A DNA stretch of 64,000 nucleotides from Chlorokybus atmophyticus (taxonomy: Eukaryota > Plantae > Mesostigma and Chlorokybus algae). Positions 3,220 to 64,000 of the stretch are shown piece after piece. The translations under genes were made by a program, and so were the position numbers. The stretch spans positions 62,001 to 126,000 of the forward strand of contig RHPI01000017.1 of assembly GCA_009103225.1 (NCBI GenBank), given 5' to 3'. Under the pieces are notes generated by a model, which had not been told where the DNA came from, searched no databases, and saw only the letters and a program-made list of their open reading frames with translations. Every line of letters begins with the position of its first letter. Position 1 is the stretch's first letter.

Positions 3220-5276
3220 TCACACTACATCTACAACTTCAAGACTAGAACCATTCCGCTCCTGAATGCACACGCGGTTGGCATACAACGCAGACCTGCG
3301 CATGGCTGTTTCCGCCTCCTCAACATTGGGTTGCTGAATAGAACAAATAACAGCACCATCCTTTGTACGACTCAACCAGCGCACTTTACCTGTCGCGCCA
3401 TTGCACACCAGCCATGTCTTAACCGTACCGACATTGTCTTGCCAACCATGGAGTTCTCGACCAAGCGAATACAACACCATATGTCCACTAGTTCTACAAG
3501 CATGTTTATTGTATTGGGTACTGCCATAGGCATCGGGTTCAGTGATGCATGTTGCACTGTTCACCTCAGAGCGCTGCACGGACCTGGACCATAACTTAAA
3601 GTGGCTTACGATAGAGTTTAGTATAGGCCCTCTGCGTATCTCTTTAATCACAGCCAAAGCCATGGGGAGCAGCGCCAACTCGCCCCGACGCAAATCAGTG
3701 ACTTCAAGAACACATTGTTCCGTTGTGGTGTTGAAGACTCTTACACCATCTTTGTAGATTGTGCCTACCTCAACATCAGCTGCGTTCAGCGCGACAGATG
3801 GCTTGCGGTAGCCAAGTGGTTTCAATCCTTGAACACGCAGTGGCACCACCTTGTATTGGTTCAAGTCTCTCCTCCACACCCGGAGTTGACTGTTGGGAGA
3901 ATCCCAGAACACTACTGTGTCGCCATGGACAGCCAGCGGTTCCTCATGCATGGCAATGCTTTCTACACGAGCAGCACGCTCGATGTCCCACACCTCCAAA
4001 CGGTAACCTATGTTGACCCTTGCCCGTACAACGGACACATTCACAAACAGCAGCTCCCCACTCCAGTACAGGCGGGTCCGACCAGGTGTTTCAAGGTCGT
4101 CATTAGGGATTGTCCCACACGGAATGCTTGAACAGCTGTCATCCAATAGGTTCCACACATGCAGCTCCCGCTCGCCACCCCGACCCCAGCAGGCCGACAC
4201 CACGCGATCAGTGCCACAGAAACACACGTCCAAAATATTTTTGTCTCCAATCCGTCGTGGCAGCAGAGTACAATTGTCTGTTGGGTGATGTGTGCGCTGC
4301 TGCACATTGTCACCAGGTGATGAATGCGCAGCAATGAAGACTGTGCGCCAATCAGCAAGCCAGCCGGGATTTTGTCGCTGTCTCTCAGCATAAACGGGGT
4401 ACTCTTTTTCGCAGAACTTCCGCCAGAGGTTGTCCTGTGCCTTGGATGTTGCCCTCCAGTGCCTAGCACGCCATAAGGTATGAAAAGCATGAATAACTGC
4501 ATGATCAAGTTAATGAGTAAATGAATCAACAAATGTCTGTTTGCTGAATTGATACGTTGTTGCGCAAATATGCAGTGTTGGCAAGTTTGCACACACTCAG
4601 AGATTGCTGGAACTTGCAGTAGAAAGGCCTGGTCTTTCATTGTAGGGTGCCAGTGCTAAACAGAACATGAGAGCTATACGCCGACAAATGCATAAGTTGA
4701 AAACAACACCAAGAGGGCAGTCTCATTCATGATGTTTGTGGCTGGTTTCATTGTGCAGGGCCTGCAGCGGACTGAGCGTGCTGCCAGTATAGATCGTTGC
4801 AACAGCAAGCAGCTCATGCCAGCTCGCAATGCATGCTGTGAATAACTTGGAGCTTAAAAGCAGTCGTTGTCCCACAGCCCACAAACGAGCTACAAAGGCA
4901 AACACACACCACTCTTATGAACAAACCATGTAGCTGTCATGACGCAACTGGACCAGTACGTGCGAATTGAAACCCAACCCAGCATACCGCATCTCTTGTG
5001 TTCCAGCAGTCAAGTCACCAGTCAAGCTGAGGGATTAACAACCAATGCACACAGACCGCTGACAGCAAGTAGTAGAATACAACTAACCAACTCTGTGTGC
5101 AGCAGCACGAGCAATCGCGCTCTCTGTCTCACCAAACCGCTAGGGCAAGTCAGCAAGGACTGCCTTCGTGCCATTGCTGCTGCTGCTTACCGACATACAG
5201 CAGACGCCGCGACAGCTGCCTTCCACCCAGCAAGCTCCAGCGCTGACTCCAGAAAGTCGGCGTCCAGCTCACCCAT
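3220..5276 (-). CDS. F-box protein with C-terminal WD40/beta-propeller-like region; 2 exons (5276-5191, 4462-3220), about 442 aa from this ATG
   Basis: Exon 1 'MGELDADFLESALELAGWKAAVAASAVC' + CG|GTAAGC donor. The CTAG|G acceptor at 4463/4462 continues in frame as 'RHWRATSKAQDNLWRKFCEKEYP', completing an F-box (VCRHW...LWRKFC). The frame then runs open into the listed 361-aa ORF with WD-like 'VVSACW..ELHVWNL', 'RLEVWDIE', 'QLRVWR'. Confidence 0.75.
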
Positions 5277-12016: not shown

Positions 12017-12128
12017 TGATGTATCATAGTGTACATGACTCAGAGTGCGACTCTTGACTGTCGTTACAATACCTACAGGAATTACATGTCAAGTACATTG
12101 CAACTAGCTTCATGCTAAAGGTGCACCC

Positions 12129-14472
12129 TTGCACAGTATAACCGAGTTGCATGTGCGCAGATGTAGCACATATGTCGAAGTTGTTGCTATTAGCGACATT
12201 GATGAGGATGATTGCATACAAGATGAGTGGGATCCTGCAATGCCAGCATTGGCAATAGACCCTTTGTCCCCACCAGAGGCATACATTGACGTCATTCCGC
12301 AAGTGAAACGCACTGTTGAAGTCATACCTGCTGAACAACAATGCAGCGACATTCGCTCCGTATATGCGGAGCTGTCACAGGTGACAAATGGTTTGGAAGA
12401 ATGTCCCACCTCAGCAATGCAATGGGCAGAGCAACTACGCGCAGACACTTTGGATGCGGACAACTTTGTGGCAGCTTCTTTGCAGCAGCGGATAACCGCT
12501 TGGGCCACCTGGTTGCAACTGACTATGCAAGGCAAGAAGAGCTTTGTGCTGGATTGGTTGCGTGACGGGTATCGCTTACAATGGGTAGGCACTCAAGCAT
12601 CTGATACACGCAAGTGGGACAAAGTGCAAGCACTATTAAAGGCCGAAGGCTTTGGAGATAATGATATTACAGCCATGCTGTCACGCAATTCTCCAACACT
12701 AGTTGTGTTTCGAAATCGCAAGTCCGCTTCCATACATGGCAGTTATGTTGTCAGTGAATTGGCCAACTTGGTGAAAACAGGAGCAATTTCTGTTGTTGAT
12801 GCAGTGATGTGGCAGTAGTCACTGGCATAGGCGTGGTGGAACAAGAAAAGCGTTTGAGGCTCATTATGGATCTGAGATACATCAACCTCTTTTTGCGCCA
12901 CATTCCCTTCAGCTATGAGCGGTTGCGCGATGTGTTGTTATACACCAAGCGTCATTTCTGGCAAGTTACCGCAGATCTCAAGTCAGGCTATCATCATGTG
13001 CCCATTCACAAAGACAGTAAGCCTTACTTCCTCTGCGCTTTGCTGGGGTCACCTACAGGTGGAATGTGCTGCCGTTTGGCCTGAATCAAGCCTGCTGGCT
13101 GTTTACAACCTTGATGTCGACTGTGTTCACGCCTTTGCGGGCAATGGGTTTTCCCTGCCTTGCTTATATTGACGACATGCACTTCAGCCATTCCAATCGT
13201 TGGCATTTGTGTTGGCGCATTCGCCGCGTGCTGCGTCTTTTGAAGTTGCTTGGGATATTTGTCTCTGTGAAGAAAAGCCAATTGTGGCCAGAGCAAGTTG
13301 TGCAGTTGTTGGGTCTGCTGGTGGACACGATCACTGGCTCTTTTGTCATACCCGCCAACAAGCTGGCTAAGATATTGCAGTTAATGAAGGACATCGCGCA
13401 CGCGCCTGTACTGACCAAGCGTCACTTGGCACGCATTGCTGGCAAACTCATTGCGTTGAAGCTCGCATTTGCACATGCAAGCATTTATGCTCGCCACCTG
13501 ATGGGTCTGGCATTGGCCACAGATGCATGGGATGACAGCATCGGTGATTTGAGCGCCTTCAAACACTTTTGTGATTGGACGGCTGCGGGCTTGCAGACCT
13601 ACAATGGCAATGCTTGGTGGAAGCCCCCTGTGCAGCTTGAGCTACATGTGGATGCATCCGGTACAATTGGTTGGGGGGCGACAGGACCTTGGCCTCGCAT
13701 GGCAGGCAACTTCAAGCCTGAGCATATGACACTGCCTTCAGCAGTTAAGGAGGCACTAGCCTATGTGCAAGCATTTACAGAGGTTGCGCGCGCGTTTCAT
13801 CTCCAGCACTGTACAGTGCGCATTATTGGCGATTGTCAACCAGCTATACAGCTGTTGAACAAGCTGTCTGCATCAGACCCTCAAGTGCTGCAGGCCTTAC
13901 ATCAATTGTGGTCCTTGTGCTGGGAGCGTGACATAGCGCTGACATGTGTGTGGCGCTCTCGCGATGCACTGCGCAATGCGGACGCATTGTCCAAGTTTGT
14001 GGATAGAGGGGACTGGTGTCTAACAGCAGATGCAACTGCGCATGTGCAGCAACATGTTGGACAACCGGCGTTGAATTGTTTTGCAGCCGATTGGAACAGC
14101 AAAACACCCGCTTATTTCAGCTACATACACATGCCTGGAAGTTTGGGAAATGCTCTAACTACAAATTGGCGTGACGTTCTTCAACGCTTGGGTGGCGGCT
14201 TTGTTTGGTGTCACCCGCCATTGGCTCTCCTGCATGAAGCCATAGCATTATTGCAGTACTATCAGCTACCAGCTGTGGTGTTGGTGCCTGAATGGCACTC
14301 TGCTGTGTGGTGGCCAGTATTTCACAATTGGCAATTCAGTTATAATGAGAGGTTGGGCTCAAGACCTGAGTGGTTTCAAAGGGGTGCGCGAGTACCCGCA
14401 AACAGCATCAACCCTGGACGCTACCCATACATTTGTGCTTTTGTGCACTGGGTAAGCGCACCTCTCATGTAG
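12129..14472 (+). pseudogene. pol: DIRS-type pol: reverse transcriptase + RNase H + Dam-like methyltransferase remnant (frameshifted)
   Basis: RT 'LRLIMDLRYIN..ADLKSGYHHV..LPFGL..YIDD'; RNase H 'LHVDASG..EALA..IIGDCQ..NADALS'; MT-like 'CFAADWNSK..NALTTNW..VWCHPP'. Frame breaks at ~12810 and ~13070. Confidence 0.9.
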
Positions 14473-15617
14473 ATAACGATGCATGATAACAGGACTTCTC
14501 CATGTGCCTTGAGCTTGTATTTCTTCCAGGGTGACACCGGCATGAAAGGCACTCTGTGCAGCACCACGCCAAAAGGAATGCAACCCCAGGTGCGGCCTAT
14601 AAATGCCACATGCCTTGCAGCAACGCACGAAGGCATGATAAGCACAATTGCCTGACATGCAGTGTTCTTCCCACTTCAACCTATTCTTTGCAACAGGTCG
14701 GAATAAAGGACCAGCAGTGATGGCAAAGGAGCTGTTGCGACAATAGGTCAGATAGGCGTAGAGCACTTCAGAGAACTCCACAGGGAGACCACTGCTGCGC
14801 ACTTGTATAGTAGGTGCACCTCCCGTGCTGTAATTTTTCAGATGTGTTAAAGTGGCCGCTAGCCCTGAGCTTGAATCAGCCGCTTGTATCTCGTGATTTG
14901 TAAGCGCGCACCTTCACCACCCCGTTGCCATGTGCACCACAGGTATATGCATAATGTGTAGTCGCGCCAGAGCACAGCCTTGTCATGTGTGACAGTAAAT
15001 GGCTGAGGTATGGTAGACAGCTGTTGCTGGAAGTGGTAGATCAGCGTGCGCATGTCATCCATCGCCAGTGGTACAGCAGCAATAAGTTGCACGCCTTGCC
15101 GAGCAGCAATCTTCGCATACCCTTGGCGAAACTCGCGCACGTCTATGGACAGAAGCGGGTTGCCCACAGACCTGTCGCTGTCCCAAGGGCTGATGCGTCC
15201 CAGCAATCTGAAGGAGCATGTGAGATGGGAAATGACATTGTCCAGTGTCGTGCTAGCGATCATGCGATGGCCATGGCGGTCAAGCCTGCGAGCTTTGCCA
15301 ATGTGTGTGTCGGTCCAGTGCTCAGCAAGGTAGCTTGTGACAACTGCTTGGGAGACGTTGGCAACAGCAATACTCAGCTCAGGATGTTCAAGATAGTTGA
15401 CAAACTCTTGCCACACGCGATTACGTAGATTGCGAGTCTCATTGCAGACAGCTTCACGGCTGATGCGCTCCACATCTATCAGCGCTGCCGCAGCTCGCTC
15501 ACGCAGATTACAACTGCTTATTGGTTGAGGACGAATTGCTGCGCGTGCGGTGCGTTGCACATCAGCGGTTTGCTGCAACCGCTGTGCAAAATCCATCTGC
15601 GGACACAGACAAACCAT
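14359..15617 (-). pseudogene. Tyrosine recombinase of the retroelement (antisense to pol)
   Basis: N-terminal helical domain, then 'WQRGGE' (R), 'THLKN' (K, after a frameshift at ~14870), 'LGLHSFWRG' (HxxR with R>W, CGG>TGG), 'GTW' and 'HRYL' (Y). Its 3' end overlaps the pol 3' end convergently. Confidence 0.88.
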
Positions 15618-18600
15618 TACTCAACTACTAAACACAATGACCTGGACTATAACTTTGGCAAGAAACTATACCAAGCTCTACACCTATAACCCTTACCTAC
15701 TAATATATGCTTGAGAGGGTGCGGTAGAATTTTTGATGCATCTACAGTCGTTCATCGTGTAAACCACAACTATAACGATGAAATGCGTTGCATCGTAGGG
15801 CTTAGGTGTTCTTGCCAAAGTTGGACTGTAGGTAGGATTGTTGTTTGTGACAAAAGGAATGTAAATCGCTCATCGTGTGCAAAGTAGTATAATGGTCATT
15901 ACTCGTTGAGGCTGACTATTGGTCAGCTAGATTGAAATAACAAACTGTTAACCATTTAATTAATACTAGTTGTTAGCGCTAGGGTTAGTTGACACACACA
16001 CGTGTCAACTTACTGTTCAGTCGCGGCCGTCACCTCAGCGGCGTCGCTGGCGGCGGCGCTGACGGCCGAGAGTTCGCCCTTTCCGCCCCACCCTGTTGCG
16101 CCACTGCGCCAGACACATGCGCCCAGTCTCAATTGCGCTGGCCAGTGCATTCGCAATTGTTGATCAAGCTGAGCTGATTGTGAATCCGAATGCGTTCATG
16201 ACATGTAACGAGGATCCAGACATGCGAACAGCGTATTTATCACCGTACGTTCGTGTCGTTACATCCACGGTGATACGCGTCATTATCAACCACCGTCAGT
16301 ACGTCCCGAATGTTTGATGCATCTACAGTCGTTCTTCATGTAAACCACAACTATAACGATGAATGCGTTGCATCGTAGGGCTTAGGTGTTCTTGCCAAAG
16401 TTGGACTGTAGGTAGGATTGTTGTTTGTGACAAAAGGAATGTAAATCGCTCATCGTGTGCAAAGTAGTATAATGGTCATTACTCGTTGAGGCTGACTATT
16501 GGTCAGCTAGATTGAAATAACAAACTGTTAACCATTTAATTAATACTAGTTGTTAGCGCTAGGGTTAGTTGACACACACACGTGTCAACTTACTGTTCAG
16601 TCGCGGCCGTCACCTCAGCGGCGTCGCTGGCGGCGGCGCTGACGGCCGAGAGTTCGCCCTTTCCGCCCCACCCTGTTGCGCCACTGCGCCAGACACATGC
16701 GCCCAGTCTCAATTGCGCTGGCCAGTGCATTCGCAATTGTTGATCAAGCTGAGCTGATTGTGAATCCGAATGCGTTCATGACATGTAANNNNNNNNNNNN
16801 NNNNNNNNNNNNNNNNNNNNNNNNNNNNNNNNNNNNNNNNNNNNNNNNNNNNNNNNNNNNNNNNNNNNNNNNNNNNNNNNNNNNNNNNNNNNNNNNNNNN
16901 NNNNNNNNNNNNNNNNNNNNNNNNNNNNNNNNNNNNNNNNNNNNNNNNNNNNNNNNNNNNNNNNNNNNNNNNNNNNNNNNNNNNNNNNNNNNNNNNNNNN
17001 NNNNNNNNNNNNNNNNNNNNNNNNNNNNNNNNNNNNNNNNNNNNNNNNNNNNNNNNNNNNNNNNNNNNNNNNNNNNNNNNNNNNNNNNNNNNNNNNNNNN
17101 NNNNNNNNNNNNNNNNNNNNNNNNNNNNNNNNNNNNNNNNNNNNNNNNNNNNNNNNNNNNNNNNNNNNNNNNNNNNNNNNNNNNNNNNNNNNNNNNNNNN
17201 NNNNNNNNNNNNNNNNNNNNNNNNNNNNNNNNNNNNNNNNNNNNNNNNNNNNNNNNNNNNNNNNNNNNNNNNNNNNNNNNNNNNNNNNNNNNNNNNNNNN
17301 NNNNNNNNNNNNNNNNNNNNNNNNNNNNNNNNNNNNNNNNNNNNNNNNNNNNNNNNNNNNNNNNNNNNNNNNNNNNNNNNNNNNNNNNNNNNNNNNNNNN
17401 NNNNNNNNNNNNNNNNNNNNNNNNNNNNNNNNNNNNNNNNNNNNNNNNNNNNNNNNNNNNNNNNNNNNNNNNNNNNNNNNNNNNNNNNNNNNNNNNNNNN
17501 NNNNNNNNNNNNNNNNNNNNNNNNNNNNNNNNNNNNNNNNNNNNNNNNNNNNNNNNNNNNNNNNNNNNNNNNNNNNNNNNNNNNNNNNNNNNNNNNNNNN
17601 NNNNNNNNNNNNNNNNNCACCCACCCACCATTGATAGATCTGGGCTTCCAGAGATCCGTTTATCATAAGCTCAAGCACCAGCAGGAATTGGTTGCTCTCG
17701 TAGCAGTACTCAAGCACCCAAACCAGGTGCTGGTGGCGAACCCTCGCCAGCATCGCCAGCTCCGCCGCAAACTCCTTCCGGCCAATCGCACCCGACCAGG
17801 ACTCCTGCAGCCTCATCACCGCCACCCAGCTATCGTCACGCAGCTGCGCACTGATACCATGCAATCACGATGGAGGTGGAGGGGTTGAGTTGCTTCACAT
17901 TACGGGCAAGTCCAGGCAGAAGATGACTTCGAGCATGGTAGCTTGTTAGTGGATGGTCATACCTGTACACAGTGCCCAGGCCACCGCTACCAATGCGCCG
18001 GTCGGCGCTGAACCATTTGGTGGCTTCAGTGAGTTCTTGCAGAGTGTACACCACAGCAGTTACATTTTCTTCCAGATCGTAGGGACCACTTGGTTTGGAT
18101 GCTGATTGCCCTGCATGCACAGTGTCAAACACTGCCGTCGTCATGCCATAGAGCGTTGTTCCTATGTTGATACATGGCTTATTCTGCTACATAGCTGACA
18201 GATCCCAACTGCAAGACATCAATAGCACGTGCTAGAACATGTAGGCTTGGTCGAATTGGTTACAAAAGGCAATCCGTGTTTTCTTTTGTGCCACAACACT
18301 GCAGCCGAACAGACAATGACTAACCATTGCTGCCCAAGGAGTATTCTCGCGAGCTGTTAGTGATGATGCTGACGCTTGGAGGCATCTCCTCCCGGAACAC
18401 CTCAGCGGCATCCTTGCCATTGCTGCGCTTGCGCCTCCTGAGCCAACAGCCCGCCAGGATGCAAGCAAGGACAATGGCAACTAGAACAACAACCGCCGCT
18501 GCTATCAACCCACTATGGCTGCTGTTCTTAGCAATCATGGGCACTGATTGAGGTGGAGGAGGGTGAGCAGGAGGAGGAGAAGGTGCCTGCGCAGGAGGAG

Positions 18601-20149
18601 GCGCTGAAGGAAGTGGCACTGGCAATTGCGCATGTTTGAGCATCAATGAAAGATCGTGAAACTGCGTGTGTGTGTACCACATATACATGCAGCATCACAC
18701 AAACAAAATGGCAGCAGACCAGGAACCAGCCTTTTGCACTGCTGCGGACGCACGCACGCACATTCGTGGGTATGCACAGGTTGACAGATTGCTTGATGTG
18801 TACTTGGTTCACTGAGTCTCATGCTTGTCACGGGTGATTTTGACAACAATCAACAAGACCTTTACACGTACATTCGCAGACGGACGGTCTTAACCCCACG
18901 TGCTCCCGTTGGCATCATTCCATGTGCCAGAGACGGTCATCCAGACGCTTTCCTCACGGCAGTAACAGTTGTCCGGCTGCAAGTAGTCCACAACGCTTGA
19001 TCCTGTAACAGTTAATGTTGAAAGGGTGCTGGAGCTTAATCACCAATGTTGATGACAAGAGTGACTCTTGTCTACTACACCGCATATGGCTTGTAACTTG
19101 TGTGCATGGACTCTTGAAGACAAGCCATAGGCGGTGTAGTTAGGGCTGCATCTGTTGACCAGTAGATGATGCTCTTGGTGACTGATCCGACTGTGCCATA
19201 CATCATGCAGGCGATGCTGATCTGTTTGTTTTATAGACAACGTCCCCTCTCAGCGCTTCTCACCGCTTGAGCGGACGGCATCAAAGTTGGAGTACGTGAG
19301 GGCGCTGCCGGCAATGTAGCGGAAGTCACAAGTGCAGTCGCACTGGCGAGCCTGGCCGTCCGCAAGATCCCTTCTGGTCTGGTCTGAAATTGCACTGTGT
19401 ATGGTGTATGGTGCAGTGAGAGAGGTCGAGAGAGGCAATAGCAACACACAACTCTTGTCTGCAAAAAGCCTTGCACTGTTACTTGTTGCAGTAGCTTGCG
19501 ACACGCGCGCGCTTGCACAGTATGATGCACGCGTGCGCGCGCAAACACAACTATAGACACATGTACTCGCACACACACTGCATCCTCTTGTGCAACTTGT
19601 TGCAACGTGTTAGCATATCAGGATCATAGTGCAGGCATGTTGCACACGGGCCCAAAGTTGCAGCTACCTGCAAGAAAAGCAGCTGCTGCATTTGCACACA
19701 GCCTCAGTGCCGCAGGGACTGCAGACAGTGCAGGTGAGTTTATACACAAAAGCAGATAGTAACATGCAGTATTCGCAACCTTGTCAGAGTGCCTTGCTGA
19801 GCACACTGACAAGGCAACATCAACATAGCCATGTGGAAATCCACTGTCAGGTCACACAGCATGTCACTTACTCTAATAGTGCTTGGCAACTTCCCACCCG
19901 CCGTACACCAATCCAGACCTCCTAACCCACAGTTCATCTTTATGTGCTTGGACAATGTAGTACATATGCCTCAACATGCACGATGGTTGTGACAGCAAGC
20001 AGCCTCGGCAGTCATGTCTGTATGCGCACAAGATTGCCAGCAAGTGTGGACACAAAGTTGTTGTTCTTCTCCTCGCTGCCCACGCGCGCCAGATGTGCTC
20101 CCTCCTGCTCCTTCGTACAGGCCTGGCCAACAACAACAAGTTGTGCAGC

Positions 20150-26511: not shown

Positions 26512-31025
<4,514 letters not shown>

Positions 31026-45099: not shown

Positions 45100-53060
<7,961 letters not shown>

Positions 53061-53480: not shown

Positions 53481-55485
53481 ACCCCGCGGACCATACCTGG
53501 TCCATATTCCGCGGGCAAGGACTGCCTGGTCCGCGGGGGACGGATTGTTCCTGGCCCCGAATAGAGGTGCGCACTTGCGCACCAGACATGGTGCGGCGGA
53601 CCAGTCAGGTGCGCTAATGTTTCAATGCAATAACGTATCGTTCCGCGGCTGTCGCGCACCGTACCTAGTTCGTCGTGAACCGCAAATGGCGCGGCACGGA
53701 CCAGTGACATTACTAGTCCGTGTACATATAGGCAGTCACGACGCCAGAGGCCTGCTTCTCAGCCAAAGCTTAAACCGGCCCGGTCATCGTTTTGCGCGGT
53801 GATTCACACCGTGTTGATGTGCTGTGCAGTGTTGCTTTACGTTGTGTTACAATGACTTGCACCGTTGAGGTGGTTGTATCAGCCGCGTGTTTTGACGGTG
53901 AGAGAGGCGCTGATGGATCAGTGTCTGTGTACGCTTGGTTCGGTCAGTTTACTGTTGTCGATCATGCTTATAATGGCATGTAACATCGGCGGATGGTGAA
54001 GTTTAAACGTATACTTACTGTGCGTAAACCGTGGAGAAGCCTGTTTGTGAGTTGTTTGTTAGCGCTGTTCGTCTTCGTGGCGTATGTAGTATATCCGTGG
54101 ATTTTTATCCGCTGCGTTGATATCGACTGTTTGCTGAATGGGTTTTGAGCTGGTTGTTGATGGCAGTGGCAGCGGCGGCGGGTGCGGTGTCATTGTTGTG
54201 CGCGTTATGGCAGCTCACGGTGTTGGCGATGATCATGCGCCATTGAGCGTGTCGTTGTCGCTCGATGGTCCGCTGCCGTTTATTAGACAGAGTGGCTCGT
54301 TTTACCTGGCCGGTTATGAGCAGGTGATCAGTTGACTTGACTCTTGCTGCTGTGTAATCAATGGATGGTGTGAATGCTTGGCGACTAGGTATGCCAATGT
54401 GCTGGTTGTTTGGTTTTGATGTGCGCTGTCTAGGTGTCGTTGGGATGGCCAGCTCTGATAGCTGGTTCTATTGCTGGTGAGGGGGATGGCGTGAGGGAGC
54501 TGCATGTGGCGTTGCTTGGTGGGTTTGGTTTTCGTTATAGTCTGCATCATGTGCGGCGAAGTGGAGGCATGCAGCTGCGGCTGAGCAGTGATTTGTTGGT
54601 TGTGGAGCATGTGGTGGGTGGGGTTGTGTTGGCGCGGTGGGTAATTGCACTCAGTTGTGATATGGAGCCTGGGCGGCGTCGACATTGGGTTGAACAGTGG
54701 CATGATATTGAGTGGTTGCCGTCCGAAGTTGGGCAGTGGAGCATGCATCCTCTGCAAGGCGGAGACAATGGTTACGTTAACAACTCTGGATTGCCCCCCC
54801 CCCCCCCCCCCCCNTGGCAGCCAGTCTTGCCGCGATAGCCTGGTAAGCATCTGCTTGCACGTTACTTGCTGTGCCTGTGCCTCCACATCATTGTGATATT
54901 GTCCAACATGCATGATGTGATGTACATGGCGTTAAGCTGTTGGCACATGTGGTGCACATGTCATTGCAGTAGTTGGAGCGCTTCCTCTGCATCCGGCTGC
55001 AGGAGGATAGAGGCTGCCCTGGTCGTGTCGGCTAGATGCATTGTGCCAGCATTAATAGCTGGTGGTGAATATGCAATGATCATCCCGTTGCAGCTGCTGG
55101 TGCTAGATTGCGTGTGCACCGTGTGGTTAGGAACTTGTTGATGTACGCTCTTCTGCATGCCTTAATTGCCTGTGTTGCTGCCGATGCACAGCAGTGTAGT
55201 GAATGTGACCATGTCGCAGTGCTGTGCACGAGGTACCTAGTGACCAGGTTGTCTGGCCCGCGTGTATGTGACACTCTCGCACTTGGAGCCTGTTGTGTAT
55301 GCGCATGGGGATGAGTAGTCTCCTGCCTAGGGTGTGATAAGGCTGACAGACAGCGTGCGTGTGCGGGGCTGCATGAGTCAGTGCATGTGTCATGTTGTCT
55401 TGTCTAAACATGTATTGAACTTTGCAATTGTGGCCGTGTAGTGACCTGTGCTAGTTGTCTGTGCATGTAGCGAACATATAAAGCA

Positions 55486-57742
55486 CTAGGCGGACCATGA
55501 CAATGGACCGCTACACATTGTGTAGCCTAACCTTTGCAGCATCAACCTGCTAAGGTACTCCGAATACACTGGTGGTATACATTCTACAAGGGTGGGGTCT
55601 CTGCATGTATCCAATCGATGCCGAGTGCATGCTGCCACGCGTGGAGTGTTCCGCGTGAGGCTGCTTTGTCGTATACGGGGAACATTTGCTGTGTGACAGA
55701 CAGTAGATGCTTGGGCAGTGCACTGCCGGTGCTGTGGGGAGACAGTGCTTGAAGGCTTTTCTTCGCATGATCGCGTACCACATCGACTTGCAGTTTGGGG
55801 CTGGTCTCAAATATTCTGTGTGCCGGAATGTATGCAGACGAAACATGGTACCGCAGAGCACCATGGTTGGGGACATGTGAGCTGCAGCTCATGGAACGTT
55901 CTCCACAATGTAAGGCTTCCCGCTGTTGCGCAAGCGACTGAGAAGGTGTGGTAGCAGAGTGCTGTGATTCCATGGCGCCTCGTGCATTGCGCGCTGTGTT
56001 GAGATTCGGACACTACTGACCATGCATGGAGTTGGTGCAAGCACAAGTACACACACTCTACCAGAGCATACACACAAGGCTGATCCACAAGGCTTTCTAA
56101 GGATTACAACAAAGTCATACCGCGGGCTTTTATACCCGCCAGTTCTGCACCTGTCTACTCTAGAAGCCACCACGACTTCTACACTCAACCGATTCCTGCG
56201 CTCTAAGTTGCACCACGTAGGTACTTTCATGAGCTTTCCAACAAGCTATGACACGCGCCATTCAATGACGTAACCACCGAGCTACAACGTTTCTTCTACA
56301 GCGCCTGGAAGTCTCCAGACTCCGGACTCGACTCCGCGCCTGGAACCTTCTCGACTGAAGTCCTCGCCTGGACCTTTCTCGATTGGAACCTTCTCGCGCC
56401 TGAAGCTTCTCGAGGCGATTTTTATCCACAGGGCAAGCTGACCGGATACAAGAATATCCTCAACACGCTGCGCATCTGTTATGCAGGCGGTATAGGCTTG
56501 ACAGGGCGGACTAGCCCAAATGAGGTCATACATGGCGAGATCTACTGTCAAGGCATCTCCTTGCACGAATGGAAACGGGTACTCCGGCTGTGCATTGATG
56601 TCTACACCGGTAAGAATACAGCCCCATGCTAGCGCCGCAGCCGCCGCAGCACAAGTCCAGCACCCGCGGCCGATGTGGTGGACTATCGCTGCGGAGGTGA
56701 GTGTGTGTCATCAGGAGCGGGATCGAGACAGTCCACAGAGGCAATGCATGAAAGGGGGGTTGCACTTTGCGATGTTGCTGCACACGCTGCCCTCCGACTT
56801 GGTGGCAGCTTGTGCTACCATTGTGGGTGAATGTAACGACGATGTTATGCAATGCCATGTTCAGGTGCTGGATGTCATTTTCATGGAAGCGGACACTGTG
56901 ACGACCTGCCACCAACCTTAAGTGAGCCTCGCGACATGGGCGCGCTTTGGCCAACACATGGTGCGTCGGTGTGCATCAGCTCTCACCGCTTTTGCCGTTG
57001 TAAGCATAAATTCTGCCACTGTACCAATTGACGTCCTTGGGCCAGTTCACCATGACGCTATACCCAAAGCACATTTGCCTTCGTGGCAGCGTAGGCGCTA
57101 TACAGCAGAGCCAGGGGCTGCTCCAGGCTGTAACAAACACATTGGGGGTTAGGAGATCTTCCACCACATTTGCAGGTGCGCAAGCATTGGCCAGGGTTGC
57201 TTCATAACATGTGCTCTTGGACTCACCATGTCAGTATCTGTGCTGCTTGAAACAGTTGCGGTGCTCAAGCGTAGCGTAGCCTGTCTGCATCCACAGCATA
57301 CGAGTTGCCCCTGCCAACCATGTGTCATGCGACAATGACATATATGTCATGTGAGGTGTGCTGCTGAACTGGTTGTGTACCGCAGTTCCAACTTATCTGC
57401 CTCTGCTGCTGGGTGGCTTCCGTACTGGCTGCACCCGGTCGCGCATACGGCATACACCGCATAAGATGCCCATGCCACTCAAAAGCAGAGCCATGGCAGT
57501 CAATGCACTTACCCCAGGTTGAAGAACTCCGGACTGGTGCATCTCTGTTGGCTGCGGCAGTACACTATGTGGTGGCCTGCTGCTTGATGATGCCAACAAG
57601 CTGCTGTAAAACCAAATCGCAGCAGGTAGGCGTCGCACTGCTTCTAATATCGGTTCAGCCTTGCTCGCTGTCCATTGTTAACCACGTATGCCTGGTAGAC
57701 GTCGCAGATCAATGTATTCCACCTCTTCGCCGCCATTGACAT
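55486..57742 (-). pseudogene. Spliced Tudor-domain + phage/bacterial-type C5 DNA methyltransferase gene, inactivated by a solo LTR, frameshifts and stops
   Basis: Tudor: 'FGYSVMVNWPKDVNWYSGRIYAYNGKS|GRHSVRFHENDIQHLNM' across an 81-nt GT-AG intron (56986-56906). The same frame runs to MTase motif I '[17 protein letters not shown]', followed by '[21 protein letters not shown]', motif IV '[12 protein letters not shown]', motif VI 'SGKPYIVENVP', 'LCGTMFRLHTFRH/RIFETS', 'WQHALGIDWI' and 'ECIPPVYSEYL'. Candidate first exon 57742-57513 'MSMAAKRWNTLICDVYQAY..'. Confidence 0.85.
55997..56465 (-). mobile_element. Solo LTR (469 bp) with 5-bp target-site duplication
   Basis: Termini TGTTGAG...CTCAACA. 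CGCTG is duplicated at 55992-55996 and 56466-56470. Its 5' 122 bp are nearly identical to 60702-60823. Confidence 0.95.
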
Positions 57743-57801
57743 GGATGGCAACACAACTGGCGGATAGTTGGCAACAATGCGGCACTGGCCATCATGTTGG
57801 C

Positions 57802-57829
57802 AACCCTAATTTTGTGAGTTAAACCCTAA
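57802..57829. promoter_or_regulatory. Two telo-box-like motifs (AACCCTAA) 60-90 bp upstream of the Tudor-MTase start codon
   Basis: AACCCTAA at 57802-57809 and AAACCCTAA at 57821-57829. Telo-boxes are known proximal-promoter elements in plants. Confidence 0.4.
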
Positions 57830-57883
57830 CAAAGCGAGTATTTCATTATCGGAGGTATGAGTCGACGGCAAGCACGACATCTG

Positions 57884-58574
57884 TCAGATGTCGTCCATGT
57901 TCATGAGAGTCAAGTCTTCAACGTCGCTGTCATCGTCGTCGGCCTCATGGTAAACATAGTCTATTGCCACATCAGTGTGGCTGCTGACCGCGGGAACAGC
58001 ATGTTGCCCACATGTCTGTGTCGAGCACGTATCTTGTGCCCCCTCGGTGGCGTTGTTAGCAGCTGCCGCATTGTGGTTTTCACACCCCAGACAGCTGCAG
58101 CTTTCCGTGCACGCTTGTTCAGCTTTCCTGCATTTGCATCATTTGGTGTGCCACCTGCCTGTCTTGCAACCACACCCTTTCATCAGCAGGTGCCTCCTGC
58201 TCATGGCTTGCATGTTGTCTGGCAGGTCTTGCACTGCCGTCCACATGCCGTCCAACTCATAAACATAAAATCCGTACTAACAGAGGTCTGGCAAACGCAT
58301 GTCTGACTCATAACTTTGCATCCACATGTGCACTGATTACACTGCACGCAGTGCGTGCAGCCATAGTGCGTCTACAGTGGGCATGGTGTCTCTGGGAGTT
58401 GATATTTTCTTCCACACAGTTTTGTGGATTGCTTCTAGCCAGGTTCACCCAAGGTGGCTTTATCACTGGTGGTGGCATCAGGTCCGTGGAGCTGATAATA
58501 CAAGGAAGCAAATGTACCACAGTCGAATGAACTGCGGTATTTCTCGAAATACGCACAACCAAGCAGTCGCAGCA
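57884..58574 (-). pseudogene. C-terminal fragment of an Academ-like (XPG-domain + Cys8 zinc finger) DNA transposase
   Basis: 'LRLLGCAYFEKYRSSF', 'WLEAIHKTVWKKIS..MPTVDALWLHALRAV*SVHMWMQ..LPDLC*YGF..' then 'GCGCKTGRWHTK*CKCRKAEQACTESCSCLGCEN' and an acidic tail. This matches my recollection of the PT..AL.LH..R...W / Cys8 C-terminus of AcademX proteins. It is cut on the right by the copia LTR. Confidence 0.65.
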
Positions 58575-58999
58575 TGTTGAGAGTCATTCCTACATACGAT
58601 CAGCATCGACCCTCCACACAGGAGTAGAAGGTCGTAAGGACGAGCACTAGGTCCGGACTTAGCAAGATGGCGTCGTCGGATCAGACTCCGGACTCCAGAC
58701 TGGAGCCTTTCTAACTGCTTCATATCTCCGCGTATACCTACTCATATTAGGCGTGTAAGAGCCTGTTGAGAAGCTCTGATTGTAAGGAAGACAACGCAGC
58801 TTAGTGCGCGTCAAAAGGCTGAGTATAGCTTACGCAGTGCTTGCAAACGTAGACGTGTGTTTAACTGGCTGGTATAAGAACCAGCGGACAACTTGTAATA
58901 GATGAATGTGATGTGACTTGTGTATGCTGTGGTGGCGGTAGCTCTGTCTCTGTGTGTCTATGCTTGCCACAAGTACATGTGCATGCTAGTCCTTCAACA
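58575..58999 (+). mobile_element. 5' LTR (425 bp) of Ty1/copia element
   Basis: TGTTGA...TCAACA termini, immediately followed by PBS GGTTATGGGCCCA (59000-59012). Confidence 0.92.
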
Positions 59000-59127
59000 G
59001 GTTATGGGCCCACACTACGCTTGAGGAGTGTGAGACTAGCTTGTGTGCATAGTAGTTCCACACTACGGTAGCTTGTTGGTAGCAGAGCCTTGGGTGTCAA
59101 CTGCAAGAAAAGGCAGGCACGACAGAG

Positions 59128-60701
59128 ATGGAGGCGACCTACGACAAGGGGCAGATTGCAAAGCTGGACACCGACAACTACAACACATGGTGCGTGGAGA
59201 TGAAGGCCTTGCTCATCCACAAGAAGGTGTGGAAATATGTTTATCTGAAGGCACCACCACCAATACCAGGAGCGAACACTGTGTGGTCAGAGCATTCAGC
59301 AGAAGCACACTCTTTGCTTGTGTTGAACTGCAAACCGCATCACTTTCCCATGCTCACTGCATGTGAAGATGGTAGACAAGCTTGGGAAAAGCTATTAGCC
59401 GTTTTCAGAGCCAAGAACAACGCCAGAAAGTTGCAACTACGCAAGCAGCTGCGCGCACTTAGGAAGGAGGCAGCGGAACCCATCATAAAGTATGTTGCGC
59501 GCGCGAGAGAGTTGTGGGCGGATCTCATTAACGTCGGCCACAACATGGGGGAGACGGAGATTGTGCTGGCTGTTGTTGCAGGGCTACCAGCAGAGTACGA
59601 GGTCGTCGCAACACTGCTGGAGACATCGTCATCAGAGTTGACGCTGGACGATGTACTACCGAAGCTGCTCACCGTGGAGCAGAGGGTGATGAAGAAGGAC
59701 GAGCAAGCTGATGCCGTGGCCTTCTACACCAAGAAGCACGGGAAGAAGAGCAACCATGAAGAGAAGAACAAGGGCAACAAGCTAGGCAATCCTCGTTACA
59801 AAGACCTCACATGCCACTGGTGTGGTTGGAAGGGGCACATTGTGAAGGACTGTAGGAAGAAACAACAGGGGCAACCTAGAGCAAGCACCAGCAACAGCGG
59901 CAACGAGCACCAACACAAGGAGAAACATGTCGCCTTCACTGCATCCAGTTCGAGGGCGGGCACAGCTTTTTGGGTGGTGGACTCTGGCTGCGATCGTCAT
60001 CTCACACCAAACAAGGAGGTGATGGAGGGCTACAAGAAGCTGACGTCCACAATCAAGGTGGCGGGCTTCGGTGCCAAAGTACTGGTGGCTGAGGGAGTTC
60101 GCAATGTACGACTCCAGTGCAAGGTTGGTAACACACTACGCGAGGTGTTGTTACGCAACGTCTTGCATGTTCCTAAGGCTATTGCGAGTCTATTCTCCGT
60201 GAGGGTTGCGGAGCGCTTAGGCGCGGAGATCCTATTTTGGAAGGGTGGCTGCTCAGTCATCCTTGATGGGGTCGTGCACATGGTTGGAATTGCTGATCCA
60301 GGAGGGCTCTACCACGTGGAGCAGCCTCAAGACAGAGACATTCAAGCTATGGTGGTAAAGGACCAGAAGTCGCCAACATTGTGGCATTGGAGGTTCGGGC
60401 ATCTCAGCTACGTCAACCTCACTCGCCTTGTCGCTGAGAAGATGGTCAAGGGCATCCATCTCAGCACAGAACTCAAGACTGCATCAGGTGCACTTTGTGA
60501 ACCATGCCTGGTTGCAAAGCAGCATGCTATGCCATTCCCATCATCCTCTTCTAGCAGTCAGCATCCTTGCGAGCTTGTGCACATGGATGTCTGTGGCCCT
60601 ATGCGCATTGTGGCGAAGGGAGGGGCCAGGTACTTTGCTACATTCCTTGACGACTACAGCAAGCTGTTCATCATCTTTCCATTGACGCTCAAGTCAGAAG
60701 T
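59128..60701 (+). CDS. gag-pol: Ty1/copia gag-pol (gag, CCHC knuckle, protease, GAG-pre-integrase, integrase start), interrupted at 60702
   Basis: 'KLDTDNYNTWCVEMKALL', 'CHWCGWKGHIVKDC', 'WVVDSGCDRH', 'LWHWRFGH', 'CEPC', 'LVHMDVCGP..FLDDYS'. The last 41 residues of the listed ORF are read-through into the inserted LTR. Confidence 0.95.
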
Positions 60702-60823
60702 TGTTGAGGATATTCTTGTATCCGGTCAGCTTGCCCTATGGATAAGAATCGCCTCGAGAAGATTCAGGCGCGAGAAGGTTCCAATCGAGAAAGGTCCAGG
60801 CGAGGACTTCAGTCGAGAAGGTT
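60702..60823 (+). mobile_element. 5' part of an LTR of the same family as the solo LTR at 55997-56465, itself interrupted by a gypsy element
   Basis: TGTTGAGGATATTCTTGTATCCGGTCAGC...AGTCGAGAAGGTT matches the solo LTR start with only a few substitutions. Confidence 0.92.
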
Positions 60824-61111
60824 TGTAACGGCGGTGGTCGCGAATCATCCACCGTCAACGTCATCACCATTATTACTAACCTAGCTAGAAGTTTCGGTAA
60901 CTTAGAAGCTTCGTTAGGTGTAGTATAAAAGACGCTCACTGCCTTTGTTAACGCGTTCTGATTTCGCCTGTCATTTGCCGTTGTCATCTTGCTGCCGCCG
61001 TGCATGCCTTTAGTTTAGGTTTGCTTCACTGGTGGAGACGCGGGGTAGGGACAGTGTGTACCCTACCACGAACCCAACGACAAAAGCCAGAACCCAGTTC
61101 CTACTGCTACG

Positions 61112-62062
61112 ATGGACGCCGAACAGTTCCAGCAGTTCATGACGCTACTGACAGTGACCCTGAGTCGACCACCCACAACTGGAGGACAAGATAGACGTGC
61201 TAAGCCAGCCCCGTACACCGGAAAGGACGACATCGAGATGTGGCTGGACCACTATTCTAATGTAGCAGCCTACCACGACTGGGACAATAATCAAAAGGCT
61301 CGAGAAATGATGTTGCATTTACAAGGGGAGGCAGCGGCATGGTACCTGATACAGCCAAACGACGTAAAGGTGAATTGGGATTTGTTAGTGGCAGCCTTAA
61401 GAGCTCAGTTTGGACAGCCCAATTCCATTGCAGCAGCGTTACAGAAGCTACACCAGTTGAAACAGTCAGCCACGGAGAGTGTTACAGCGTTTGCTATTAG
61501 ATTCAAGCAATTGATTGCCCGTGCGGACCCTACCATGAAGGAAGATGTCAAGTTGAGTTTTCTATGGCCAAGCATGCAACCTTCATATGCCCAAGTGGTA
61601 ATGGTTCATGCACCTGCTACCCTGGCGGAAGCTTTCGCCATCGCTCAAAGGATTGAAACGGCACGGCAGTTAATTAATTTCAAAGCCAAGCCCGCCCCTA
61701 CTTTGGCTACATTTAACACCCTGCCACCGACCAGTACTTTACAGTCGGTACCTGTCCTCACTGACACGGCGAGACCAATGGACGTGGATTCGCAGTCTGC
61801 GCAGTACTCACAATCATCAGCGCGCGGAAATCGGACCCCAAATCAGGTACGACAAATGCCGCAGCGACTTCCGGAGCGCGATGTCGAGGGACGCCCACGT
61901 TGTTTTAACTGTGATCGTTACGGTCACGTCGCCAAGTACTGCCGCGGCCCACGCCGACAGCAGACACCTCGTCTTGAACGACAGAACGTTCAATTTGATG
62001 AAGATGGAGCCGAGCTGTCAATCCCCGCGCCCCACATGTTGCAGGAAAACGGTCAAGCGTGA
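61112..62062 (+). CDS. gag: Gypsy Gag with CCHC zinc knuckle
   Basis: 316-aa ORF: 'PAPYTGKDDIEMWLDHY', 'LQGEAAAWY', 'QSATESVTAFAIRF', 'CFNCDRYGHVAKYC'. Confidence 0.95.
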   Translation: MDAEQFQQFMTLLTVTLSRPPTTGGQDRRAKPAPYTGKDDIEMWLDHYSNVAAYHDWDNNQKAREMMLHLQGEAAAWYLIQPNDVKVNWDLLVAALRAQFGQPNSIAAALQKLHQLKQSATESVTAFAIRFKQLIARADPTMKEDVKLSFLWPSMQPSYAQVVMVHAPATLAEAFAIAQRIETARQLINFKAKPAPTLATFNTLPPTSTLQSVPVLTDTARPMDVDSQSAQYSQSSARGNRTPNQVRQMPQRLPERDVEGRPRCFNCDRYGHVAKYCRGPRRQQTPRLERQNVQFDEDGAELSIPAPHMLQENGQA

Positions 62063-64000
62063 GTGTGAACAGGGCCACGCCCACGCTAGCAACTCAACAA
62101 GCGGTTAGTAGAGGAACAAAGGCAGTTTTAACAGTGTGTCTGGGCATAGGAACTCCTCCATTGCCAATAACAACTTTGATTGACACCGGTTCCTCTTTAT
62201 GTACTATGAATGCTGAATTTGCTCGACGTATGCGTTTTCAAATTGGCACAAGTGCACAGCCAGTGCGTATCACATTTGGAGATGGCAAAGCCTCAGCTAC
62301 TACCACCGCATTTGTTGAAGTCCCTGTACATTTCAATCAGTTGCTACAAGACACCGTCACATTTTATGTACTCCCCGGCCAATTATTCAGTGTTACTATC
62401 GGTTTCGATTGGATTATGAAGACTAAGTCCTGGTGTTCTGAAAAGGGACTCTGGCACCCACGTGCGGGACTTATACCTCGTTCGCCGTCAGAAATCAAGT
62501 CAGTACAATGTGCTATGACCGAAAATGAACGTGCTGACATCAAGAAACTAATCGCGAACCTGTCGGACGTCATTGCCGCGACACACCCAACACAAACCAA
62601 TCATGTACAGCACCACATTGTCACCGGCGACAGCCTGCCCATAAAAGTACCACGATATCGCAAATCCCCAAAAGAAAGTGCAATCATTGCCCTGTTCGTA
62701 TCTGACATGCTTGCCAACCATATCATTGAGCCGTCATCCAGTCCCTGGTCAACTGAGCCGATCGTCGTCCCAAAAGCAAATGGTACCGATTTCCGTTTGG
62801 TAGTAGATTACCGCCGTCTCAACGCTGTCACCAAACCGGACAGATATCCGCTGCCGCTGATTGACGATATTCTTGATAAACTCGGCGGCTCCCTTTATTT
62901 TTCAAAACTGGATCTGGCATCCGGCTATTGGCAAATACCCATGGCACCTGAGGACGCGGAAAAAACGGCGTTCCGCACTGATAAGGGTCTTTATCAATTT
63001 AAGGTTATGCCATTTGGTTTATGCAACGCCCCAGCAACATTTCAACGAACCATGGATAGTATTTTTCGTGGTAAAGAGGACTCGGTCTTGGTTTATGTGG
63101 ATGATATTATTATATTCTCGAAATCTTGGGAGCAGCACATCCGAGACGTTGAGGCGGCAGTGGCAAGGTTACGACAGCACAAAATGCAAATTCGTTTATC
63201 AAAATGTGAATTTGGCATGAAGCAGCTGAAGTTTCTTGGCTATATTATATCCCGAGACGGTATTCATGCAGATCCAGCAAAAACATTGGCCGTTGCTGAT
63301 TTCCCACAACCTCATAATACCAAAGCGGTACGTAGGTTTTTAGGAATGTGTGCTTTCTATGTTCGCTTTATTCCCAACATGGCGGACATCAGTGAGCCGT
63401 TGCGCCGTCTACTGCATAAAAACACCCCATTCGAGTGGACTACATCATGCGAGAAAGCCTTTAATGCTCTGAAGTCCGTACTCTGCGCCGCCCCTGTACT
63501 CGCTTATCCGGACTTTACAAAAACATTTGTTGTAAGGACTGATGCTTCAGACGTGGGGATGGGAGCTGTACTGTGCCAAGAATACGACACCGGTATGCGT
63601 CCCATCCAATTTGTTAGCCGCGCACTGACCGGAGCCGAACAAAATTATTCCGCTACGGACAAGGAATTAGCTGCTGTGATCTGGGCATTCAAGAAATTCC
63701 ATTCTTACTTGCACGGTTCTGACGTAATTATTGAAACGGACCACCGACCGCTTCAGGGACTTTTTGCTAAACAAGATCTACGCGGCCGCGCGGCACGATG
63801 GGTAATGGCTATGCAACCATATACTTTTTCCATTCGCCCGCGGCCCGGTTGTGCTAATATGGACGCCGATGCACTTTCCCGCGCCCCACTTTCGGCGGCA
63901 TGTGACATTTCCTGTGCGCTGCTGACGAGAGCCGCGGAGGAAGAAGAACCCGCCCCGATGATTGCAGACCCCTCGCCGGCACCAACTCCCGGTACCACGA
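62041..64000 (+). CDS. pol: Gypsy Pol (protease, RT, RNase H), open to the window edge, -1 frame relative to gag
   Basis: I translated this frame by hand and found no stop: 'LIDTGSS', 'FRLVVDYRRLN', 'DLASGYWQ', 'MPFGL', 'YVDD', 'TDASDVGMGAVL', 'ETDHRPL', 'ADALSR'. It is absent from the ORF track, probably because it runs off the window without a stop. Confidence 0.93.

Follow-up and report, generated by a model that had tools for sequence, protein, structure and literature searches.

We report that a 64,000-nucleotide stretch of the genome of the alga Chlorokybus atmophyticus (NCBI GenBank assembly GCA_009103225.1, contig RHPI01000017.1, forward-strand positions 62,001 to 126,000; hereafter the window) contains on its minus strand, at 55486-56711, the decayed remnant of a compact C5 cytosine methyltransferase gene. 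On balance, we favor the reading that this was a nuclear gene of phage descent, now dead, that likely came by way of a giant virus and whose product was probably a single protein carrying at its N-terminus a Tudor domain that is predicted to recognize histone H3 methyl-lysine. The nearest relatives of the methyltransferase, judged from sequence comparisons, form a clade whose variable region harbors an inserted methyl-CpG-binding domain (MBD), for which we found no description in the literature searched. This MBD-bearing family is a firmer and more useful result than the Tudor fusion, which is likely but unproven; the window gene is likely to be a dead, reader-swapped member of an overlooked family of 5-methylcytosine (5mC) writers. 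The wiring of foreign DNA methyltransferases into eukaryotic chromatin is known from few cases, and the present family seems to have gained different readers repeatedly, while standard surveys based on PF00145 would mostly miss it.

The C5 methyltransferase motifs I (the S-adenosylmethionine or SAM-binding motif), IV (Pro-Cys), VI (ENV), VIII and X occur in order across three reading frames, and all the motifs named in a prior sequence-only reading of this DNA were found at the minus-strand places assigned to them (Table 1). A tblastn search with the read-through translation of the methyltransferase recovered 224 of 50,697 phage records, with most of the 30 phage rows listed being annotated as DNA methyltransferases of actinophages. 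Likewise, 588 of 1148 candidate proteins match the read-through at E<=0.01, the best at 7.5e-24. This likeness to phage DNA methyltransferases exceeds chance. When profile A3 was run against the PDB, DNMT2 emerged among the 37 matches at E<=10 only at E 0.004 or weaker, and MET1, DNMT1 and DNMT3 did not appear; neither the close similarity nor the companion domains (BAH, chromo, UBA, SNF2) that mark the canonical eukaryotic DNMTs, a set that also includes DNMT5, were seen. These results uphold the view of the sequence-only reading that the enzyme is of a compact phage or actinobacterial type and unlike MET1, CMT, DRM and DNMT2. A Pfam check of the methyltransferase against PF00145, proposed in the same reading, failed: no family was matched in nine of nine window pieces, those of the methyltransferase included, the pieces scanned being short and many intact relatives also missing the PF00145 model. 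The PWWP domain, a relative of Tudor in the 'royal family', is absent by Pfam from the window pieces and from 45 relatives. Evidence for the fold comes from modelling not the window copy but its intact relative P0288 (pLDDT 91.6). This model matches C5 methyltransferases in Foldseek, and with VIA-align its top 19 rows have Z 11.2-15.6 versus at most 8.4 for the others (best Z 15.6, root-mean-square deviation 4.5, 219 aligned). It is 10-18% identical to canonical eukaryotic DNMT structures, and among viral structures it comes closest to a C5 methylase of Pithovirus (35% identity, E 1.5e-19).

The gene is a pseudogene, as had been recognized: the methyltransferase carries three frameshifts and one premature stop, and is interrupted by a solo long terminal repeat (LTR) of the form TGTTG...CAACA, with copies of a 5-bp target-site duplication (TSD) at 56470-56466 and 55996-55992. 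The LTR and one TSD copy together comprise 474 nt, so the methyltransferase pieces on either side stay in frame once they are excised, just as had been proposed. The further description of the methyltransferase as complete did not survive, because the sequence has lost roughly 14 nt at the first frameshift, behind motif I, and lacks the MBD insert that the closest relatives have. The window copy aligns with the MBD lead-in of the relatives and then jumps to the MFPVY motif, and a profile of the clade MBD run against the read-through and the six frames of the window detected no such domain (best E 1.7).

Among the candidate proteins that match the read-through, P0028 has an MBD in the middle of the protein (Pfam E 7.6e-9; MBD2 structure E 2.5e-7) and has unusual features in common with the window copy. 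P0028 retains the Arg, Asp, Tyr and Arg of the MBD2 alignment, and we take these four residues to be those with a role in methyl-CpG reading. A full-library profile search (best 150 of 4789 matches) and a second homolog search (best 120 of 7870) revealed two related groups, the first of which, clade A as defined here, was scanned in 16 proteins. The clade-A MBD lies between motif VIII and the MFPVY motif, and scores above the Pfam cut-off in 8 of the 16 proteins, below it in 3 and not at all in 5, two of which are fragments ending before the insert. The intact MBD-bearing enzymes P0028, P0128, P0132 and P0286-P0290 (Logan) and P0152 (EukProt label) are 310-390 amino acids long, with P0290, at 280, being N-terminally short; they may be regarded as candidate single-chain read-and-write enzymes. 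The source of P0152 labels it as a gene model of EukProt/JGI Chrzof1, a code that presumably stands for the chlorophyte Chromochloris zofingiensis. Only 2 of the 16 proteins reach PF00145 at E<1e-4, the threshold of a published survey (PMC12344493) with database sizes different from those of our scans, and the family is hence easy to miss. As a separate observation, P0001, P0004, P0016, P0130 and P0133 have a compact phage-type methyltransferase duplicated head-to-tail in one polypeptide of ~450 amino acids.

In a maximum-likelihood tree of 46 rows chosen from the fetched set (206 columns, the MBD insert having been left out), the window copy falls within clade A (SH-aLRT 93.2, UFBoot 85). Scored by single domain, the read-through matches P0128, P0131 and P0028 best, at ~197-200 bits, compared with 150 for the best short homolog without the insert, and the window copy matches 9 of 20 clade-A diagnostic columns, as against 0-5 in 19 outgroup rows. 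These observations point, with moderate support, to a placement of the window copy within clade A. The same tree recovers a second clade, B (95.5/98), whose sister link to A is weak (71.4/83). The clade-B insert is longer than that of clade A and aligns collinearly in a profile alignment, which is suggestive of an MBD; the clade MBD profile, however, gives it only E 0.2-1, and the Atlas gave no match. Members of clade B occur on metagenome contigs of up to 245 kb. One of them (L238:10004-11104, E 4e-85), which groups with P0299 at 99.3/100, lies near glycosyltransferases on a contig whose giant-virus label rests on its GVMAG name; a putative packaging ATPase near the gene, suggested by a motif resemblance, was not confirmed by Pfam. 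Another clade-B protein, P0190, bears an N-terminal zf-CW histone reader (E 7.7e-10). Scans with the alignments A7, A6 and A10 and a metagenome scan gave ordinary phage-type homologs among the matches listed; a clade-B gene, the one on L238, was reached by a single other search. Scans of IMG/VR with the single proteins P0028, P0137, P0200 and P0400 recovered no relative, and a GTDB scan with narrow patterns, which is weak evidence, gave 241 pattern matches of which none was confirmed.

Upstream of the methyltransferase lies an 81-nt intron (donor G/GTGAG, acceptor GCAG) that the sequence-only reading had proposed and whose signals are indeed present. In the Tudor domain of RDM15, going by the available portions of PMC8184781, the aromatic cage is formed by W616, Y623 and Y641, with D643 and D645 contacting H3K4me1, and E647 and Q654 contacting H3R2. 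The spliced window peptide displays W, Y (+7), F (+25), E (+27), D (+29), Q (+31) and H (+38), and this RDM15/PDS5C cage spacing is obtained only by excising the 81-nt intron, as expected of the intron-split PDS5/MSH6-type Tudor that had been suggested. We searched the window for the five-residue cage pattern, allowing Y/F and D/E and accepting both uninterrupted matches and those split by a GT-AG intron of 60-400 nt, and found a single occurrence on both strands, at 57044 with the 81-nt intron. The expectation from 20 shuffles was 0.3 per strand with loose splice sites and 0.05 with stricter ones. As Pfam is blank on all pieces, the Tudor call rests on residue spacing and not on a profile match; by this spacing the exon pair is very probably a Tudor domain of the PDS5/MSH6 type. 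The presence of a PDS5 Tudor in charophytes has been reported (10.1101/2025.05.08.652912, seen in part). By analogy with RDM15 and MSH6, an H3K4me1-type specificity may be predicted. The window has F for Y641, E for D643, Q for E647 and H for Q654, so its specificity may differ.

After splicing, one open frame runs from 57230 to motif I, and among the three frames of the linker only that of the Tudor is open to motif I, which agrees with the earlier proposal that the second half of the Tudor shares its frame with the start of the methyltransferase. From this continuity of frame we consider it probable that Tudor and methyltransferase were translated as one protein. A second intron within the linker, with an acceptor-like site at 56689, was considered and rejected as unlikely, since the site falls in sequence that aligns with the N-terminus of the relatives and the lengths given by the consensus donors listed are not multiples of three. 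Further upstream, the frame 58000-57514 has no match in the PDB, the phages or Pfam, and no family was found for the upstream exons. A telo-box-like 8-mer occurs twice in the window, at 57828 and 57808, the sequence-only reading having proposed a telo-box promoter. The sites stand, whereas the promoter role is unproven, as additional splice-site candidates are found still further upstream and the telo-box-like sites may fall inside decayed exons.

Several points weigh against our reading as a whole. Neither the Tudor halves nor the intron read-through gave a profile or structure match, the spliced form not being among the queries; the Tudor read-through retrieved only repeat artefacts from the PDB and none of 235 longer candidate proteins at E<=10. 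The cage pattern, with Y/F and D/E allowed, was fixed after the sequence had been seen, so the true chance of its occurrence is somewhat higher than the shuffles imply. Random sequence of the same composition would yield an open, in-frame linker with a probability of ~0.1, and there is an ATG at 56711, where clade-A proteins start. The cage pattern is found in 0 of 402 fetched proteins, which include no intact Tudor-methyltransferase fusion, and none is present among the best 150 of 4789 library matches (longest 488 amino acids) or in two length-limited sets of the best 120 homologs. In 63 of 64 parts of IMG/VR no clade-A gene stood out among the matches listed, and the viral route for clade A is consequently indirect. 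We found no enzyme of this family that had been assayed. Finally, the lack of the MBD could reflect decay of the gene once it had died rather than a swap.

The strongest competing explanation, which we nevertheless regard as unlikely, is that a stand-alone viral-type open reading frame, beginning at its own ATG, came to lie in or behind a host Tudor gene, the Tudor exon of which was spliced elsewhere or ended separately. Besides the native clade-A position of this ATG, homology reaches back only to ~56700, candidate donors at 56785 and 56765 come after the Tudor, no intron is evident in the methyltransferase part and the fetched relatives all lack a Tudor. However, such a juxtaposition needs the open in-frame linker to be a product of chance, it leaves just ~120 nt between the two parts, with little space for a stop, a 3' end and a promoter, and it must be set against the existence of another N-terminal reader fusion, that of zf-CW, in the family. 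Still less credible, and in our view improbable, is a chimera dead on arrival, in which a mobile element or recombination brought together pieces of a host Tudor gene and of a methyltransferase from a virus or endogenous virus, the product never coming under selection as a protein. Copia, gypsy, LINE-like and DIRS-like remains crowd the region, the gene has at least five lesions and lacks the MBD, and no intact copy exists among the proteins searched; yet the Pro-Cys, ENV, motif X and Tudor cage survive and the linker is open, which fits earlier selection, even if that selection may predate the joining.

With regard to the setting of the gene, the window has ~50% GC and is depleted in CpG, abounds in retroelement remains (Pfam matches to copia, gypsy and reverse transcriptase) and contains pieces of receptor kinases for which the best matches among solved structures are plant RIPK, BRI1 and BAK1. 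Pfam scans of 17 open reading frames of the window found domains of transposable elements or kinases or nothing, with no viral marker among these 17. The genome around the locus thus appears to be streptophyte-like and nuclear, which accords with the eukaryotic residence first assumed for the gene. The solo LTR belongs to a multi-copy family with deep coverage in sequencing runs X1-X3, while unique upstream stretches have a depth of 2.5-3.65 in X1. At 80% likeness, the contigs of X1-X4 cover the LTRs and two upstream stretches and leave the methyltransferase and intron uncovered, with no joints; they are of low depth and uninformative on expression or copy number. Contamination by bacterial or phage DNA, or an assembly chimera, might be entertained given that the wider family is mostly phage and bacterial and that the scaffold has gaps elsewhere, but is extremely improbable in view of the multi-copy host LTR with its TSD inside the coding region, the absence of any N from 54815-64000, a GC content and CpG deficit matching those of the flanks, the eukaryote-type MBD of the nearest relatives and the X1 contigs, which show 0 differences from the window over 57131-57359 and 57612-57872.

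Returning to the single-protein reading, we infer the following history. The nearest relatives are an MBD-bearing clade with an algal model and a giant-virus sister clade, and the route therefore likely led from a phage-type ancestor to a giant virus or alga and thence to this genome. Direct capture from bacteria is disfavored by these relatives. Methylation of cytosine C5 by means of SAM and the motif IV cysteine is the established chemistry of this fold and would have been the activity of the ancestral enzyme. In clade A the MBD, which would occupy the usual target-recognition region, may dock on methyl-CpG, whereupon 5mC would be written nearby in a read-and-write loop. Tudor is one of three reader types in the family and is present where the MBD is missing, and it might have taken over targeting, such that the enzyme of the window gene would have been brought to H3K4me-marked nucleosomes. 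Later the gene would have died through frameshifts, a stop and the LTR insertion. A more general proposal, which we put forward tentatively and with some doubt, is that small phage-descended 5mC writers circulate among giant viruses and green algae and swap readers, with zf-CW gained in another branch, and that the exchange of an MBD for a Tudor could link an H3K4me1-type gene-body mark to methylation independent of MET1, CMT and DRM.

The window copy is dead and its own importance is thereby limited. The intact relatives are small enough to be expressed, which makes two questions testable: does an internal MBD give self-propagating CpG methylation, and do giant viruses deliver chromatin-aware writers to algae? 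The Tudor fusion, if true, would connect 5mC with an H3K4me1-type mark in a genome from an early part of the plant lineage.

Table 1. Features of the methyltransferase locus in window coordinates, in 5' to 3' order of the minus strand
Feature	Coordinates	Strand	Remarks
Possible decayed upstream exons	57226..58155	-	Candidate donors 58085, 57512, 57226; candidate acceptors 58155, 57311
Telo-box-like sites	57828, 57808	-	Within the possible upstream-exon region
Predicted 5' boundary of the first Tudor exon	~57125	-	From branch site/acceptor
Exon, first half of Tudor-like domain	56987..57125	-	Cage W at 57044, cage Y seven codons on
81-nt phase-1 GT-AG intron	56906..56986	-	CTCAC branch-like site, in-frame stop
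Second half of Tudor-like domain	56830..56905	-	Third aromatic at +25, acidic residues at +27 and +29
Open in-frame linker, Tudor to methyltransferase	56712..56829	-	Stops in the other two frames
Methyltransferase N-terminus	56619..56711	-	ATG at 56711; SAM-binding motif I at 56663-56640
Motifs II-IV after frameshift 1	56471..56618	-	Frameshift 1 at ~56617; catalytic Pro-Cys (SPPC) at 56512-56498
Host solo LTR	55997..56465	-	469 nt, 5-bp TSD
Motif VI (ENV), premature stop, LCGTMF, motif VIII region	55820..55996	-	ENV 55903-55895; stop 55891-55889; LCGTMF 55858; RH.IFE ~55820; frameshift 2 at ~55820
Variable region	55590..55820	-	MBD lead-in kept, MBD core gone (gap near 55715-55700)
MFPVY...RG clade motif and GIDW, within variable region	55590..55820	-	GIDW 55622; frameshift 3 at ~55595 (55600-55590)
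Motif X region (IPP.Y.EY) and clade-A tail (LGY...) to stop	55486..55590	-	By alignment to relatives; IPP.Y ~55580; stop codon 55488-55486

The remainder of the window provides some additional observations. Nested elements fill 58576-64000, namely a very high-copy LTR and a copia gag-pol (59083-60701) followed by a Ty3/gypsy element; the copia gag-pol is cut at 60702-60823 by a partial LTR, 97.5% identical to the one found inside the methyltransferase. At 12108-15620 there is an open reading frame with a PF00078 reverse transcriptase, along with opposite-strand frames resembling a tyrosine recombinase and with a C-terminal part that may be a Dam-like domain. We take this layout to resemble that of a DIRS-type retrotransposon, the confirmed part being the reverse transcriptase only. 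Two receptor-like kinase genes of plant type, related to each other and oppositely oriented (~16700-18700, minus; ~28300-30400, plus), each adjoin a long GA repeat and a scaffold gap. A 429-codon open frame at 3220-4509 (minus) has the look of an F-box tail followed by beta-propeller-like repeats, with no Pfam match at E<=0.01, and a homopolymer of ~760 C beside an N at 47344-48105 is likely an assembly artefact.

Among known systems, the compact C5 methyltransferases of actinophages and bacteria (~200-230 amino acids; for example YP_010755552.1 of Streptomyces phage Success and WP_329287766.1) show the same motif order and short layout, with ~37-45% identity to the read-through over the core. 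Relative to these, clade A has in addition the variable-region MBD and an LGY-type tail, and the helix that follows motif IV is longer, whereas the window copy belongs to a eukaryotic locus with an intron and is preceded by two Tudor-like exons. The Tudors of plant PDS5C/RDM15 and MSH6 have cage and acidic residues at the same spacing as the window and, in the portions of these sources available to us, are joined to cohesin or repair proteins, unlike the window Tudor, which precedes a methyltransferase (PMC8184781; 10.1101/2022.05.28.493846; 10.1101/2025.05.08.652912; 10.1101/2024.10.15.618488). The retrotransposon DNMTs of Symbiodinium and of the charophyte Klebsormidium are likewise associated with transposable elements, but those of Klebsormidium, according to the accessible text of PMC5890265, are Dnmt3 enzymes inside retrotransposons, whereas here an LTR intrudes and no reverse transcriptase or integrase belongs to the gene. 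Within the accessible literature, subscription reviews and bioRxiv supplements lying outside its scope, we found neither a Tudor- or MBD-fused C5 methyltransferase of this type nor any C5 methyltransferase whose variable region holds an MBD, and term look-ups in PMC11244446, 10.64898/2026.10.09.758095 and PMC12210455 gave the same outcome. Also comparable are the orphan viral-origin DNMTs and the ChloroDNMTs, which the available portions of PMC12344493 describe as lineage-restricted and laterally acquired in chlorophytes and charophytes; the ChloroDNMTs often carry a PWWP, while the orphan DNMTs are generally without companion domains and the main text is silent on Tudor or MBD fusions. The window pieces and the 45 relatives scanned have no PWWP, unlike many ChloroDNMTs as described there.

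The same evolutionary move, in which a prokaryote-type writer gains a chromatin reader, is seen in the bdelloid N4CMT, the chlorophyte-type Dam and plant CMT, the first of these reportedly being a chromodomain fusion. The bdelloid enzyme was laterally acquired (as cited in the available text of PMC12344493), and the chlorophyte-type Dam occurs with PWWP and zf-CW, such reader fusions being called a common mechanism in the accessible part of PMC4738411. The window copy and clade A differ from all of these in both the family of the enzyme and the reader that it has acquired.

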